This document shows positions 64-55,171 of a stretch of DNA of 64,000 nucleotides, one piece after another. A program made the position numbers and the translations under genes. Location of the stretch: contig JAHJAO010000031.1 of NCBI GenBank assembly GCA_018813905.1, positions 5,922-69,921 on the forward strand, given 5' to 3'. Each line of letters starts with the position of its first letter. The first letter of the stretch is position 1. The DNA is from Candidatus Omnitrophota bacterium (lineage in GTDB: Bacteria > Omnitrophota > Gorgyraeia > B26-G9). The notes under the pieces are model-generated. The model had not been told where the DNA came from, ran no database searches, and was given only the letters and a program-made list of their open reading frames with translations.

Positions 64-471
64 TTGGCTGTAGAAACACTTAAAAACGCAAAAAAAGTGC
101 TGATTGTAGATGATGAAAAAATGCTCGCTTTTCTTTTAGCGCGTATCCTGAAACTGAAAGGATATCAAACCGCGGTGGCCTATGACGCGTTTGAAGCGAT
201 AGCGTTAATCGAAAAGGGAAAATTCGACCTGGTTATTGCCGATATCCGCATGCCGGAAAAATCAGGGTTGGAATTGATTAAAGAGATTAATCAGCGCTAT
301 CCGCAGGATGGGCCGAACTTTTTAATCTTAACCGGATTTGATTTTGAACTTCCTGCGGACCAGATGCAGCAACTGCGTATTGCCGGTATTGTCCAAAAGC
401 CTTGCCCGCGCATTGAAGAGCTTTTCAAGCAGGTAGAAAACGCTATGCAAAACCCTGGATTAGCCGCCTGA
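64..471 (+). CDS. Stand-alone response regulator receiver (CheY-like REC) domain protein; apparent TTG start preceded by AGGGGG Shine-Dalgarno
   Basis: ORF translation shows the REC hallmarks: the acidic pair VDDE, the phospho-acceptor context LVIADIRMP, and the conserved K in QKP. An RBS-like AGGGGG lies 6-7 nt upstream of position 64. Confidence 0.8.
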   Translation: MAVETLKNAKKVLIVDDEKMLAFLLARILKLKGYQTAVAYDAFEAIALIEKGKFDLVIADIRMPEKSGLELIKEINQRYPQDGPNFLILTGFDFELPADQMQQLRIAGIVQKPCPRIEELFKQVENAMQNPGLAA

Positions 472-574
472 TTTAATCCTGTCTAAATTAAACACATAAC
501 ACAGTGCCTGAGTTGAATTTCTTTTAAATATAAGGTATACTTTTACACTATTTTTTAGGGCGAGGTATGTCTAA

Positions 575-1012
575 ATGAAAATATGGCGTTATTGCTATAA
601 GCTGATTATGGTTGCGGTGCTGGGACTATTCGTAAACGTTGGTTATTGTTCGGCGGCGAGTTCTGTTTTATCGTGTCTTAATGGAGCAGATAATCGCGGA
701 ATTTTGGCTCCCGCAATAAAAATCGGTTCCATGGATGAGGCTTGGACAAAGATATTTTTGATCGGGGCAGAAGCCGATTTACCATATCTCGATATCGTTG
801 ACGTAGCGCCGGAGCATGAATTTAAAAGGATCCATTCTATCCCCAGGACTTGGGATGTCGAGTTTAGAGATTCGTGGCACTACATTAAACGTTTGATTTT
901 AATCTTAAAAATTGAAATGCAAAGGGGAAATATTAAAGGTTATACACTCCCGTCTTTTGATGAAATATTACTGGTAGGGGGGGGGCGGGGCAGGAGATGG
1001 AATATACTTTAA
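575..1012 (+). CDS. Hypothetical secreted N-terminal domain protein (signal peptide); likely the 5' part of a gene disrupted or phase-varied at the G9 tract
   Basis: N-terminus MKIWRYCYKLIMVAVLGLFVNVGYCSAASS looks like a signal peptide. The ORF ends 27 nt after a G9 homopolymer and overlaps the next ORF. Confidence 0.4.
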   Translation: MKIWRYCYKLIMVAVLGLFVNVGYCSAASSVLSCLNGADNRGILAPAIKIGSMDEAWTKIFLIGAEADLPYLDIVDVAPEHEFKRIHSIPRTWDVEFRDSWHYIKRLILILKIEMQRGNIKGYTLPSFDEILLVGGGRGRRWNIL

Positions 1013-1578
1013 GGGTGTTAACAAGAGAGTTCAAGATACAGCCTTCCATAGTGCATGTCGTGAATCCCAACCCGAACGATTTAAAAATTTTTAAATTTTA
1101 TTTTAAATACGAGACCGAGAAATTAAAGCAGGAATTTCCCAACTTGCGTGCAGTTAGATTTTATCCGACATTTGGGGAATACATCAACAGATATTTCAAG
1201 CCGGGATCTGGCCGGGGTGGAATTTCTTTAGCTTTTGGCGGGTCGGTATTTCAATGCGATGTTATGAATGATGTTGAGCAGAAAGAAACGGTGCGTTCAG
1301 TATGGGATGTGCTTAGCCCTGGGGGTATATTTACCTATTTTGGGTACTCGAGCAGTGTTTTTAAACAGGATATTATGGCTCTTATCCCAAAGGAAGAATT
1401 CTTTTATAGAGACGACAAGTTTGATATTTATATTAAATCCTTAGACCATGACGCCGAAGCCGTCAAGATGAGTTCCGCTCCCCAAATTTTAGCTAATCCG
1501 GAAAGGGGAGCGCTTAAAATTGGGGCGATAAACCTTCCTGCAAATAGTATCCTACAGGCCATAGAAAAGTCAATATAA
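997..1578 (+). CDS. Class I SAM-dependent methyltransferase-like domain protein (3' part of the split gene)
   Basis: Motif I-like KPGSGRGGISLAFGG, acidic CDV, and post-I/II VWDVLSPGGIF (LKPGG-like). It lies in the frame reached from the upstream ORF by a +1 slip at the G9 tract. Confidence 0.5.
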   Translation: MEYTLRVLTREFKIQPSIVHVVNPNPNDLKIFKFYFKYETEKLKQEFPNLRAVRFYPTFGEYINRYFKPGSGRGGISLAFGGSVFQCDVMNDVEQKETVRSVWDVLSPGGIFTYFGYSSSVFKQDIMALIPKEEFFYRDDKFDIYIKSLDHDAEAVKMSSAPQILANPERGALKIGAINLPANSILQAIEKSI

Positions 1579-1808
1579 GTTGGTGAAGAAGGATAGTTCA
1601 AATCATACCGGCAAGTTATTGTTGAAACCAGTCCACAGCCTTAACGAGCCCCGGGAAAAACGCTGTTTTGCCGGTTTCTCCGTCAAATATATACTACTTC
1701 CTATAATCTTAGCCTGTTTTAAGCAAAACTTTCAACCACATTTCTGGACTGCGGGGGTGCGTTTTCAAAGGGATATCCTTTAATAAAATTAATAAAATTT
1801 TTTGTGTG

Positions 1809-1837
1809 TTGACAAGCTCAGATTCTTGTCATAGAAT
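1809..1837 (+). promoter_or_regulatory. Sigma70-type promoter (TTGACA - 17 nt - TAGAAT) upstream of the DUF134 gene
   Basis: Exact -35 TTGACA at 1809-1814, a 17-nt spacer, and -10 TAGAAT at 1832-1837. The downstream ORF starts at 1916. Confidence 0.55.
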
Positions 1838-1842
1838 AGATA

Positions 1843-1864
1843 ATTATGAGTAAGCACTCATAAT
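1843..1864 (+). promoter_or_regulatory. Perfect 9-bp inverted repeat (ATTATGAGT-aagc-ACTCATAAT) overlapping the predicted +1; candidate operator
   Basis: The palindrome is read directly from the sequence, immediately downstream of the -10 element. Confidence 0.45.
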
Positions 1865-1915
1865 AAATAGGGTGTTAAAAGTAGGTAAGTTTTAGTAAAT
1901 TAAGCTGAAGCTAAT

Positions 1916-2242
1916 ATGAAATCGCGCGGAAGGCCTAAAAAGTATAGAATAGTCAGAATTGACCCCATGATCAGCCAATTTAGTCCCAGAGGTAGGCCCG
2001 GAAGACCGGATGAAGTAGTTTTAGGGGTAGATGAGTTTGAGGCTATCAGACTAGCTGATTTTATGGGCACAAGCCAAAAAGAGGTAGCTAAATCCATGCA
2101 TGTATCCCAGCAAACCGTTAGCCGGATCCTGAAGAGGGCGCAAAAAACCGTGGCTGATGCTATAGTTAACGGCAAGATCATTAGAATCCAAGGCGGTTAC
2201 TATGCTATCAGCGCTCACGAACAAAATGAAAAAATTGGATAG
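1916..2242 (+). CDS. DUF134/UPF0251 family predicted DNA-binding protein (sigma-70 region-4-like HTH)
   Basis: The N-terminal RGRPKK...PRGRP motif and the HTH 'QKEVAKSMHVSQQTVSRILKRA' are typical of the DUF134 family. Confidence 0.7.
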   Translation: MKSRGRPKKYRIVRIDPMISQFSPRGRPGRPDEVVLGVDEFEAIRLADFMGTSQKEVAKSMHVSQQTVSRILKRAQKTVADAIVNGKIIRIQGGYYAISAHEQNEKIG

Positions 2243-3047
2243 TTTAACTAAAGATGAATTAATCAGTCTATATATAAATGATAGAAAGTCCTTGGATGAT
2301 ATCGCTAAGATTTATGATGTTTCTCGGGCTGCTGTTTACAAGAGACCGAGAAAATATAACATAAAACAGCGCTCTAAATCGGAGGCAAGAATTGAAGCAC
2401 AAAAACAAGGTAAATTACCACAGGGATTCTTTGATATAAACGAGAACTTCTTTAACAGCTGGTCCTCTGAAATGGCATATGTATTAGGTTTAATTATTAC
2501 GGATGGCTGTGTATCTAAAGCCGGAGTAATTTCTTTATGTATTAATGATAAAGAATTGCTTGAAAAGGTTAAGAAAACTATGAATTCTGAACATCAAATT
2601 AAGCCATCAAAACACCAAAAAAATCTATATTACTTTCATTTTGCCAGGGATAGGATAACCAAAGATTTAGAAAAATTAGGCGTTGTGCCCAGAAAAAGTC
2701 TTACGGTTAAATTTCCTGATATTCCGCAAGAATATCTGTCTGATTTCATAAGAGGCGTTTTTGATGGTGATGGCAGCGTTTTCTTTGATAAGCGTAGACC
2801 AAACTTTCCATTAAGGTCAAAATTCGTGAGCGGTTCAGAGGATTTTATAGAAGGTTTACATGTAAGTCTTAAGCTTTTAGGTATGCCTGAAAGGACGGTA
2901 TATAAGCAAAAAACCAAGAATGGCTGGAACTATATGTTTATATATGACCATAAAGACAGCATAAAATTATTCGGGATTTTATATAAAAATATCCAAAACG
3001 GATTATTTTTAGAACGTAAATATAAGCGTTTTTTAGAAGGTTTTTAA
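2226..3047 (+). CDS. Free-standing double-motif LAGLIDADG homing endonuclease with N-terminal HTH domain
   Basis: Two LAGLIDADG motifs: AYVLGLIITDGCV and IRGVFDGDGSV. An N-terminal HTH is present (DIAKIYDVSRAAVYKR). The start is chosen at the internal Met to minimise overlap with the upstream gene. Confidence 0.8.
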   Translation: MKKLDSLTKDELISLYINDRKSLDDIAKIYDVSRAAVYKRPRKYNIKQRSKSEARIEAQKQGKLPQGFFDINENFFNSWSSEMAYVLGLIITDGCVSKAGVISLCINDKELLEKVKKTMNSEHQIKPSKHQKNLYYFHFARDRITKDLEKLGVVPRKSLTVKFPDIPQEYLSDFIRGVFDGDGSVFFDKRRPNFPLRSKFVSGSEDFIEGLHVSLKLLGMPERTVYKQKTKNGWNYMFIYDHKDSIKLFGILYKNIQNGLFLERKYKRFLEGF

Positions 3048-3070
3048 GGGTTTTTTAGGGAGAAATATAA

Positions 3071-3277
3071 GTGGAAAAAGAACTGGAAGAATGGCGCAAA
3101 TTACACAGGTTTTATCTTTACACCAGCAGTTATGAGACTAAAGATCTGGCTAATTTTTTAGGTGTTAGCTCCCGGACAATGCAGAGGTGGCTGAAAGAAA
3201 AAACTAAGCCAAGTAAAGAACAATTAGCCCAAATCAAGATATATATAGCTAAAAACCAAGTCAAAACTTCCTTATAA
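3071..3277 (+). CDS. Small HTH-domain protein (68 aa)
   Basis: HTH-like segment LANFLGVSSRTMQRWLKEK. It follows the endonuclease gene by 23 nt. Confidence 0.45.
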   Translation: MEKELEEWRKLHRFYLYTSSYETKDLANFLGVSSRTMQRWLKEKTKPSKEQLAQIKIYIAKNQVKTSL

Positions 3278-3597
3278 GCAGGTCTTTTATTGTTTCTTCT
3301 TAATGTCGTACTATTGCCTATAATATATCTTATGTTAACTTGTGTATGGGGAGGATTCCCGCGGGCTATCCGTTGCTGAATATATCAGTTACGTCAATTT
3401 GGCTTTTGCGGGCTTGCGCTGATTGCGGCGGCTATTCCCCGTTTACAAATCCCTTCATTTCTGGTATTGGATTATAATCGTCTTGTGGTTGGTTTTTAAA
3501 GCAGCCACTATATGGCCGGGTCAAATTCCGGCTAATATTTCGCCGCTCCGGACAAGGTTTTCTGGCCTTGGCTTTGCTTCACAGCTCGCGTTGCAGC

Positions 3598-3748
3598 GGC
3601 TCGCAGGCTCAAATCCGAACTTTGGGTAGTACTTGGCATGGCCTAAAACGATTACGAAGCTGCAGCCCTGTTCTAGGAGCTTTTTAAAGCCCTCTTTTAC
3701 GAGCCGGCTGCTAATGCCCTGTTTTTGGCGTTCCGGCAGGACGGCCAT
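3598..3748 (-). pseudogene. Truncated GNAT (YhbS-like) acetyltransferase remnant, C-terminal part only
   Basis: AVLPERQKQGISSRLV...VIVLGHAKYYPKFGF matches GNAT motif A through the C-terminus. An in-frame stop lies immediately upstream of the first Met, no N-terminal half is present, and the reading frame runs on into non-GNAT sequence. Confidence 0.5.
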
Positions 3749-3889
3749 GGGCGCAAGGCTAAACCCATCAAATTTAGCGCTATTTCAGCCCTGATTTTGC
3801 CATTTTCAAGAATTTTTTTGCGGTTCGCTTGAGGAGCTTTTTTCTGATATAATACCAAGGGATATATATTGATTCAATAAAATAAACGT

Positions 3890-4999
3890 ATGGAAGTTAT
3901 GGCGAAAATCTTTTTTTGTATTTTAGTCAGTCTTTTGATTATTCTAAATGGGCAGGATGTATTTGCCGCTAGTTGCCCATATTGCGGGCAACAGTACGGC
4001 GATCCGATGCCCGGAGATGAAGCTAGAGTTTATGCTCTTCGCGCGCAGCATGAGTCTTCATGCCCAGCCCGTTCAACAACCCCAATGTTTGACATTGACA
4101 CAGACGATGGCCTTCGGCCCGGAGGAACCTCTTTTTTTGGCCTTGGCGGGGGCGATTCATCAAGAAATGTTGATTCTAAAAAATCTAAAGAACCGCTTTT
4201 TTCAAAAGGAAGTAAAACATCGGCTCCGGTAGACCTTAGATTTCTAAACATTGAAAGCGATCCGCAGGAAATGTTAAAGGAGCAAGCTGAATTTGATAAA
4301 ATGAATGCGGCCTGGCTAGAAAGACAGAAAAAAGCAATTAGAGAAGCTAGCATAAAGAATAAGTCTTGGACTAAATCAATTATAACTTCTATAAAAACCA
4401 CGCACGTCCCCTCCCCCCTCTATCAGCCCCACGACCTGGATGGTTTACAGCCCGGTGATATTCTGCTTATTGCTCCGGAAGCAGATGACTCCATAAGTAA
4501 TACCGTTGCCTTACTTGATCATATTTATACAAGGCGCATACTGACCTCTGGTGAGAAACAAAGCTCCGTCTCCCATGCCTTAACCGTTGTTAAAACGGTA
4601 AATGGAAAACTATTGTTCCTGGATCATACTTCCGTTGTGGGCAGCCATATATTCGGGGAAAAAGAATTTTTAAAAAATTACGGACACCGGGGTATATACG
4701 TTGCTAGGCCGCAATCAAAAGTAGATGGAGAAGTGCTATGGCAAACAGCCCAAGAGGCAGCAAAAAAAACAATAAAAGATGATAAGGTGGGCTGGGACTG
4801 GACTACTTATGGTCTATTTGGCAAAGATGCGGTTTGTTCAGAGCAAGCGGCTTTAGCCGTAGTCAAAGCTACAGGAAAGCCTCTTTTTAAGAAAAAACTG
4901 ATAGATAACTTAAAACCGATAGAGGTTACTCCGGCAGATTTATATGATCCGGAATATTTCAGCAATTACTTTGTCGTTACTCCCTTAGCCCAAAAATAG
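3890..4999 (+). CDS. Secreted hypothetical protein (signal peptide); C-terminal region possibly a permuted papain-like (NlpC/P60/YiiX-like) fold
   Basis: Signal peptide MEVMAKIFFCILVSLLIILNGQDVFA. The C-terminus has His-containing segments (LLDHIY, FLDHTS) ahead of a CSEQAALA cysteine. The fold assignment is speculative. Confidence 0.55.
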   Translation: MEVMAKIFFCILVSLLIILNGQDVFAASCPYCGQQYGDPMPGDEARVYALRAQHESSCPARSTTPMFDIDTDDGLRPGGTSFFGLGGGDSSRNVDSKKSKEPLFSKGSKTSAPVDLRFLNIESDPQEMLKEQAEFDKMNAAWLERQKKAIREASIKNKSWTKSIITSIKTTHVPSPLYQPHDLDGLQPGDILLIAPEADDSISNTVALLDHIYTRRILTSGEKQSSVSHALTVVKTVNGKLLFLDHTSVVGSHIFGEKEFLKNYGHRGIYVARPQSKVDGEVLWQTAQEAAKKTIKDDKVGWDWTTYGLFGKDAVCSEQAALAVVKATGKPLFKKKLIDNLKPIEVTPADLYDPEYFSNYFVVTPLAQK

Positions 5000-5054
5000 T
5001 TTGTAGTGATCGAGGATTTTAAATATTCAAATATTGTTTTTCTCTATTTTTCCA

Positions 5055-55036: not shown

Positions 55037-55112
55037 TGGTGGAGCCAGGGGGGCTCGAACCCCCGGCCTCCTCGTTGCGAACGAGGCGCTCTCCCAGCTG
55101 AGCTATGACCCC
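55037..55112 (-). tRNA. tRNA-Ala (anticodon CGC)
   Basis: The reverse complement GGGGTCATAGCTCAGCTGGGAGAGCG...TTCGCAA...GGTTCGAGCC...TGGCTCCACCA carries the G3:U70 Ala identity pair and an encoded CCA. Confidence 0.85.
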
Positions 55113-55171
55113 TCAATTTTACTTTTTAAAATTGACCCCGCGGTTAATTTTATAACCGTGGGGGGGCTTGA

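Follow-up and report, generated by a model that had tools for sequence, protein, structure and literature searches.

The gene and its poly-G tract

We analysed a stretch of 64,000 nucleotides of a Candidatus Omnitrophota bacterium (NCBI GenBank assembly GCA_018813905.1, contig JAHJAO010000031.1, positions 5,922 to 69,921 of the forward strand), which we call the window and whose own coordinates are used throughout. Our subject is a locus at 575 to 1578, where two overlapping open reading frames (ORFs) lie on either side of a run of nine guanines (G9). A preliminary description of this DNA proposed that the run splits a candidate phase-variable or frameshifted gene, with a signal peptide at the N-terminus and a domain of the S-adenosylmethionine (SAM) dependent methyltransferases at the C-terminus of the fused product. 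The features that define the locus are the following.

575 to 1578, plus strand: one gene, present here as a frameshifted (OFF) allele; the intact product has 333 amino acids (G7), and a G10 allele would encode 334
575 to 1012, plus strand: upstream half-ORF in the G9 state, 145 amino acids, frame 2, the best coding frame 5' of the tract
977 to 985, plus strand: G9 homopolymer, a polymorphic and putatively slippage-prone tract read as GGG GGG GGG in the upstream frame
997 to 1578, plus strand: downstream half-ORF in the G9 state, 193 amino acids (P0001), frame 1, the best coding frame 3' of the tract

Read directly, the sequence is as the preliminary description had it. The nine guanines at 977-985 are followed by C986 and by GGGG at 987-990, the ORFs at 575-1012 and 997-1578 are in different frames and overlap by 16 nucleotides (nt), and frame 1 is open back to position 964, preceded by two TGA codons at 958-963. 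Conceptual translation confirmed that one additional guanine (G10) fuses the ORFs, into a protein of 334 amino acids (aa) instead of the approximately 335 aa first proposed, and showed that the removal of two guanines (G7) also fuses them, into 333 aa; tracts of G7 and G10 thus give an intact product and tracts of G8 and G9 a truncated one. In the G9 state the 145-aa half carries 7 out-of-frame residues at its end (RGRRWNIL) and the 193-aa half is without the junction strand and loop that are described below. The tract sits within coding sequence, and its length is in the slippage-prone range (about 7 or more for G or C). Under a codon model trained on the long ORFs of the window, frame 2 scores best before the tract and frame 1 after it, the change occurring at the tract itself. 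At 0.08 and 0.16 bits per codon, both halves fall below what is typical of the window's genes (0.28 ± 0.06), and they are poorer in GC (40% against 43.5%).

An exact-sequence look-up placed the two halves in a 90% cluster of three members, comprising the 145-aa half and the 193-aa half, with two accessions each from NCBI metagenome-assembled genomes (MAGs), and a protein of 333 aa (P0004) from the Logan assembly of SRR26275510 that is identical to the conceptual G7 fusion and reads ...EILLVGGAGQEMEY... The contig that encodes the latter (L013, 3,012 bp) matches window positions 333-3346 with three differences in all, namely two fewer guanines in the tract and a C/T single-nucleotide polymorphism (SNP) at 1945 that is synonymous and lies in the DUF134 gene, while each of the 30 other homopolymers of 5 or more bases is identical between the two (30/30). 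Because the 333-aa protein equals the G7 fusion and its contig is otherwise near-identical to the window, the two ORFs together make up one gene, of which the window carries the frameshifted allele. The gene is therefore one unit, and its tract differs in length at the level of DNA. The preliminary description had left it to database searches whether homologs exist as single polypeptides; one does, as this intact 333-aa allele of a near-identical strain, although the tract of the intact allele, which had been expected to be G10, is G7.

Across its 1,004 nt the G9 (OFF) allele is free of secondary disabling mutations. When the genes on either side were looked up by exact sequence, only six public contigs with the locus were retrieved, five with the gene split and one with it intact, and products of G8 or G10 tracts were not found in the protein collection by word-indexed search, exhaustive phmmer search or cluster look-up. 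The 145-aa product is labelled hypothetical protein in two NCBI MAGs, and the public MAG records KKB82_03905 and KKB82_03910 ('hypothetical proteins') should be read as one frameshifted gene.

The predicted protein and its one relative

Four further features, on the same strand as the gene, bear on what the intact protein may be.

575 to 655, plus strand: signal-peptide-like N-terminus (MKIWRYCYK, then LIMVAVLGLFVNVGY, then CSA/AS), from a calculation of charge and hydrophobicity
962 to 996, plus strand: junction E-I-L-L-V-G-G-(G)-A-G-Q-E of the intact allele, a candidate strand and glycine-rich loop ('motif I'-like)
1081 to 1443, plus strand: region conserved with the only relative found (P0002), about 65% aa identity, including VLSPGGIFTY at 1309-1338
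1204 to 1221, plus strand: GSGRGG, not conserved, YSWKNK in P0002

By simple calculation the N-terminus has an n-region of charge +3, a hydrophobic core of 15 residues and small residues at -3/-1; the protein has no second hydrophobic segment, and the AlphaFold model places a helix at residues 4-19. A Sec-type signal peptide, as the preliminary description had proposed, is plausible from charge and hydrophobicity, an uncleaved membrane anchor being the alternative.

The methyltransferase domain fared less well. Neither the halves nor the fusion matched a Pfam or NCBIfam family at E<=1, PADLOC and PHROGs gave no match in scans of the halves, the fusion or P0004, and among PDB sequences there was none at E<=10, the profile search giving chance matches only. 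Profile matching was the only rigorous test run, and at the level of sequence the membership of a methyltransferase family fails it, leaving the C-terminal domain first proposed without profile support in Pfam, NCBIfam or PDB. As for the two motifs on which that proposal leaned, both are present, but VLSPGGIF is conserved in the relative and GSGRGG is not. Among the 20 window ORFs scanned we found no bona fide methyltransferase.

Computed without a useful alignment, two AlphaFold models reached predicted local distance difference test (pLDDT) values of 37.7 and 34.5, and the better one shows an alternation of strands and helices from residue 130 with a hairpin at the end. When it was compared with the PDB using Foldseek, most of the top matches were class I SAM-dependent methyltransferases (EgtD, Coq5, histamine and glycine N-methyltransferases, Dot1 and ArsM), with a best E-value of 6.5e-4 and a template modelling (TM) score of about 0.18. 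In this low-confidence model a strand at 130-134 is followed by a helix at 140-153, with LLVGGAGQ (G7) or LLVGGGAGQ (G10) coming after the strand, and the predicted strand 2 ends in Asn (VVNPNP), where Asp or Glu is expected in class I methyltransferases. Judged by eye, the junction LLV-GG(G)AG-Q resembles strand 1 and the glycine-rich loop of the class I methyltransferase fold, and VLSPGGIFTY resembles its usual 'LxPGG' element. A divergent Rossmann or class I methyltransferase-like fold is plausible on these models. If this view of the fold is right, the frameshift would cut the cofactor-binding loop, and therefore neither of the G9 products could be active.

Homologs of the protein are extremely few. 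A word-indexed protein search with the fusion returned only its own cluster (the 193-aa ORF, from a Candidatus Omnitrophica MAG), and tblastn-type DNA scans of genome and metagenome contigs found no relative; an exhaustive phmmer search over 1.84 billion representatives added one further relative, P0002. About 15 billion proteins contain just two members of this orphan family, one of them truncated. P0002 comes from cold-seep metagenomes of the South China Sea and shares 65% identity with residues 185-291 of the fusion. It is a C-terminal fragment with in-frame stops upstream, whose nine contigs end about 40 nt before the position of the tract. It was considered as a test of one gene against two and set aside, the contigs of the fragment stopping short of the tract. 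In the comparison with P0002 the non-synonymous divergence (dN) is 0.28, the proportion of synonymous differences (pS) is 0.76 and saturated, and the identity by codon position is 0.69/0.81/0.49. The dN/dS ratio against this only relative is far below 1, and this sequence comparison shows the C-terminal region to be genuinely coding and subject to purifying selection. The cold-seep contigs (L004-L012, 668-840 bp) share the same 5' boundary (TAGAGGGGATAATTTAAT...) and have two alternative 3' continuations after GGGCCCAGGT; such ends suggest that the gene copy is decaying and lies at the junction of a repeat or mobile element.

Origin of the two tract lengths

One explanation of two tract lengths would be that the true tract has only one (G7 or G10), the gene being intact and either G9 or G7 being a homopolymer miscount. 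Homopolymers are classic sites of indel errors, NovaSeq two-colour chemistry is prone to G-specific artefacts, ERR2191545 may be the common source of reads for several of the G9 assemblies, and the assembly from the European Nucleotide Archive (ENA) also contains a suspicious frameshift in a conserved transporter gene. However, G9 comes from three assemblers, being present in the NCBI MAG contig, the ENA MEGAHIT contig and the Logan contig of ERR2191545, and it must stand in two NCBI MAGs, since the exact 145-aa product recorded in both of their protein sets requires G9. The reads of ERR2191545 are Illumina, because its Logan contig ends in a TruSeq adapter, and SRR26275510 is DNA from groundwater of the Äspö Hard Rock Laboratory (borehole SA2074A) sequenced on Illumina NovaSeq (PMC11484514 Table 1), Illumina thus being the platform of both datasets for which it is established. 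The source study also has metatranscriptomes, and an RNA-level origin of G7 was ruled out with SRR26275510 being DNA. Moreover, the tract difference is of two bases and not one, and elsewhere in these 3 kb all 30 homopolymers of at least 5 bases agree exactly. Because a two-base consensus error at one homopolymer, with the others correct, is unlikely on Illumina, we hold a miscount to be quite improbable. The plain homopolymer or assembly error that the preliminary description had allowed for is accordingly unlikely, and the ON/OFF polymorphism is probably a real one at the level of DNA.

A different view accepts the G9 allele as it stands and supposes that it is expressed, either by recoding (a -1 ribosomal slip or RNA-polymerase slippage that yields the 334-aa protein) or as two translationally coupled genes. 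A -1 slip at G GGG GGG would restore V-G-G-G-A-G-Q exactly, and there is a tRNA-Gly(CCC) gene in the window; for two coupled genes, ribosomes could bind at a G-rich stretch that lies 6 nt before ATG 997. Yet the existence of the in-frame G7 allele means that the shifted arrangement is not conserved, and the 100 nt downstream fold no better than shuffles (z = -0.16), with no stimulatory RNA structure, which is not what programmed frameshifting or transcriptional slippage would lead one to expect. The two-gene version is opposed by the position of the junction, which is predicted to lie within a strand-loop-helix unit and not at a domain boundary (AlphaFold, low confidence), and by the overlap of 16 nt, unlike the 1 or 4 nt that are usual in coupled genes. 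Taken together, expression of the G9 allele by either route appears to us very improbable.

We consider it probable, instead, that the locus is one gene, encoding an exported orphan protein of some 333 aa, with natural G9 (OFF) and G7 (ON) alleles generated by changes in the length of the poly-G tract. The tract would encode consecutive glycines of a glycine-rich loop and would change its length through replication slippage. G9 would shift the frame after residue 137, so that the N-terminal product would stop at 145 aa and the C-terminal part would at best be made as a fragment of 193 aa; this fragment is without the junction strand and loop, and G9 would therefore be the OFF allele. G7, in frame in a near-identical population, would be the ON allele, so that both alleles would coexist in nature. 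We infer slippage as the mechanism, the loss of function of the G9 products and the divergent Rossmann or class I methyltransferase-like fold of the domain. Regarding the alternative posed by the preliminary description, one split gene whose tract length differs (G9/G7) is what we find, reversible high-frequency variation being possible but doubtful.

The polymorphism could in addition be that of a true contingency locus, in which the tract is selected as a high-frequency reversible switch (G7 ON, G8/G9 OFF, G10 ON) that would control an exported modification enzyme or a surface-interaction protein, with populations being mixtures of tract lengths. The length of the tract is within the range known for phase-variable G tracts (G7-13, Campylobacter; PMC6321876), the ON and OFF alleles stand on near-identical backgrounds, where they are two slippage steps apart against a single SNP in 3 kb, and the OFF allele is otherwise undamaged. 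The GGG-GGG codon choice, atypical for this genome, is in line with such a switch as well: GGG accounts for 17.7% of glycine codons, and the 63 other ORFs contain 70 Gly-Gly pairs of which none is written GGG-GGG. The product has a predicted signal peptide, its neighbours include orphan secreted and DUF11 surface-type proteins, and about 1.5 kb away there is a G8 tract, next to a variable AG repeat, 7 nt before the start of another gene. On the other side, within-sample heterogeneity is not seen in the assemblies, the Logan contig of ERR2191545 crossing the tract unbroken; the six contigs show two tract lengths only, G8 and G10 products are missing from the collection searched, 2-nt indels occur in the background elsewhere in the population, the 64 kb contain no other coding G/C tract of 7 or more, and a literature search gave no paper linking Omnitrophota with phase variation. 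We regard a true contingency locus as possible but doubtful, and would place the tuned reversible switch, which is a subset of the real polymorphism, in the same tentative position. Its most specific form, a selected switch in ultra-small, possibly host-dependent deep-subsurface Omnitrophota that would toggle an exported lineage-specific protein of methyltransferase fold through the glycine codons of its own cofactor-binding-like loop, seems to us unlikely. We judge occasional slippage giving a recent OFF allele to be likelier than a tuned, rapidly reversible switch, and the data do not separate the two.

Several points weigh against our preferred reading of natural ON and OFF alleles of an exported protein. 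G9 or C9 runs appeared in dinucleotide-preserving shuffles at a mean of 0.40 per window, with at least one in 27 of 100 shuffles; the tract alone is statistically unremarkable and G9 is not improbable from composition. It is, all the same, the sole G/C run of 7 or more within any listed ORF of the 64-kb window. The two alleles come from two datasets only, and each assembly shows one tract length. Two other 2-nt indels also separate the NCBI and ENA assemblies, T2/T4 in a nucleoside-transporter gene and (AG)2/(AG)3 between genes. The background thus has small indels of its own, from slippage or from assembly, and against it the tract does not demonstrably stand out, nor is it demonstrably more mutable; some of the differences could be assembly artefacts. 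The fold assignment derives from a model with a pLDDT of 37.7, a TM score of about 0.18 and no profile match. Finally, SAM is cytoplasmic and an exported SAM-dependent enzyme would consequently be unusual, a point that counts against enzymatic methyl transfer too.

ON/OFF polymorphism at homopolymers is textbook material in pathogens and is hardly documented in uncultivated environmental phyla. The locus offers ON and OFF alleles of a putatively exported orphan protein in near-identical deep-groundwater populations whose public reads can be examined directly. Read-level mixtures of tract lengths, if found, would make it a cheap and testable case of a contingency locus in the deep biosphere; otherwise it would be an ordinary recent pseudogene. 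A selected switch, if true, would extend the biology of contingency loci from host-adapted pathogens to slow-growing bacteria of the deep biosphere.

Surroundings of the locus and comparison with known systems

Two predicted signals lie immediately upstream of the gene.

513 to 541, plus strand: promoter-like site TTGAAT-17-TATACT, 9/12 matches, predicted by consensus match only
562 to 566, plus strand: Shine-Dalgarno-like GAGGT, upstream of the 575-1578 gene

An Rfam scan gave a single sub-threshold match, to the BtsR1 small RNA at 509-559 on the plus strand (23 bits, where the gathering score is 66; E 0.11); this match, which overlies the promoter-like site, is most likely due to chance, and a SAM riboswitch was not found in the scan. 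The neighbours of the gene are a response regulator, a DUF134 protein, a LAGLIDADG_3 protein and a helix-turn-helix (HTH) protein. The third of these is a 281-aa ORF at 2202-3047 (plus strand) with LAGLIDADG_3 and an N-terminal HTH that overlaps the end of the DUF134 gene and may be a free-standing homing-endonuclease-like gene; its GC content of 0.33-0.34 is the lowest of any stretch in the first 9 kb, and a small HTH_17 ORF comes next at 3071-3277. At 3521-3748 (minus strand) a 75-aa ORF matches the C-terminal third only of GNAT profiles (Acetyltransf_7 34-84 of 84) and looks like a truncated gene remnant, adding to the impression of positions 500-5000 as an accessory, decaying region. A 369-aa ORF at 3890-4999 (plus strand), with a signal-peptide-like N-terminus (…ILNGQDVFAASCPYC…) and no Pfam match, is the second orphan protein near the G-tract gene that is predicted to be exported, and it is followed on the minus strand by DUF11 surface-type and 4Fe-4S proteins.

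Other repeats are found both inside and just outside the window. Besides the coding G9, about 66 kb contain an intergenic G8 (L001:1463-1470) and, at 55160-55166, a G7 that is likewise intergenic. Within the window no G/C run other than this G7 and the G9 reaches 7; the G7 is about 50 nt from a tRNA-Ala(CGC) gene (55037-55112). On the same contig, approximately 545 nt upstream of the start of the window (L001:1459-1477), the G8 run precedes by 7 nt the ATG of a SixA-like His_Phos_1 gene. An AG repeat stands directly before the run, as (AG)2 in the NCBI MAG but as (AG)3 in the assembly from ENA. The run is the second poly-G within 1.5 kb of G9 and has a ribosome-binding-site position and a length-variable neighbour. 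Some 2.5 kb upstream of the window start, the nucleoside transporter gene (L016:20 / L017:16-19) has T2 in the NCBI MAG and T4 in the ENA MEGAHIT assembly, where T4 splits the conserved 438-aa transporter into 258 and 200 aa, reflecting either strain-level pseudogenisation or an assembly error. Each of the three indels of the population (TT, AG and GG) is of exactly 2 nt. The Logan contig of ERR2191545 (L003) starts exactly at window position 105, a T/C SNP between the NCBI and ENA assemblies, its other end being the Illumina adapter, and this coincidence hints at the presence of both haplotypes in that one sample. Over the whole window, T homopolymers outnumber A homopolymers (54 T7, 21 T8 and 2 T9 against 17 A7 and 6 A8), an excess that is consistent with most genes at 5-43 kb being on the minus strand, the runs being coding-strand A-runs (Lys codons).

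Placing the gene among known systems requires considering the protein as well as the tract. Like class I methyltransferases, the protein would, going by its low-confidence model, alternate strands and helices from residue 130 and have a Gly-rich loop after the first strand and an 'L-x-P-G-G-hydrophobic' element at the usual distance; unlike them, it has no profile match at E<=1, has Asn for the acidic end of strand 2 and carries a predicted signal peptide. Phasevarions are based on mod genes of type III restriction-modification systems in Haemophilus, Neisseria and Helicobacter. In these systems a simple-sequence repeat in a methyltransferase-type gene switches its expression (cited in PMC6321876). 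Unlike a phasevarion Mod protein, the one considered here is without a DNA-methyltransferase profile match, a (D/N/S)PP(Y/F) motif or a target-recognition domain, and it appears to be exported; a restriction gene was not found near the locus, and no DNA-methyltransferase match was obtained with Pfam or PADLOC. A DNA methyltransferase of phasevarion type was ruled out on these grounds, with no such motifs or domains and no restriction partner nearby.

The locus also resembles ordinary homopolymer frameshift pseudogenes, where a single indel splits an otherwise intact ORF and sister strains have the intact allele, and the only hints of something more than such a pseudogene are the GGG-GGG codon choice and the two-step difference in length. 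The nearest known system is that of the poly-G contingency genes of Campylobacter jejuni/coli, especially Cj0170/Cj0171 and Cj1325/Cj1326, which are SAM-dependent or putative methyltransferases. These pairs were first annotated as two coding sequences (CDSs) each and later merged as 'phase-variable, fusion/separation' (PMC1899501), and many Campylobacter genes with G(7-13) tracts are annotated as SAM-dependent methyltransferases (PMC6321876). As in Campylobacter, an intragenic poly-G tract sets the reading frame by its length and one gene has been annotated as two CDSs. In Campylobacter, however, switching has been shown experimentally and dozens of loci form a phasome, whereas here there are two metagenome alleles and one coding tract in 64 kb; the protein has no detectable sequence relationship to the Campylobacter ones, has a predicted signal peptide and belongs to an uncultivated bacterium from deep groundwater and not to a host-adapted pathogen. 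In its sequence logic the Omnitrophota gene nonetheless resembles the poly-G genes of Campylobacter.

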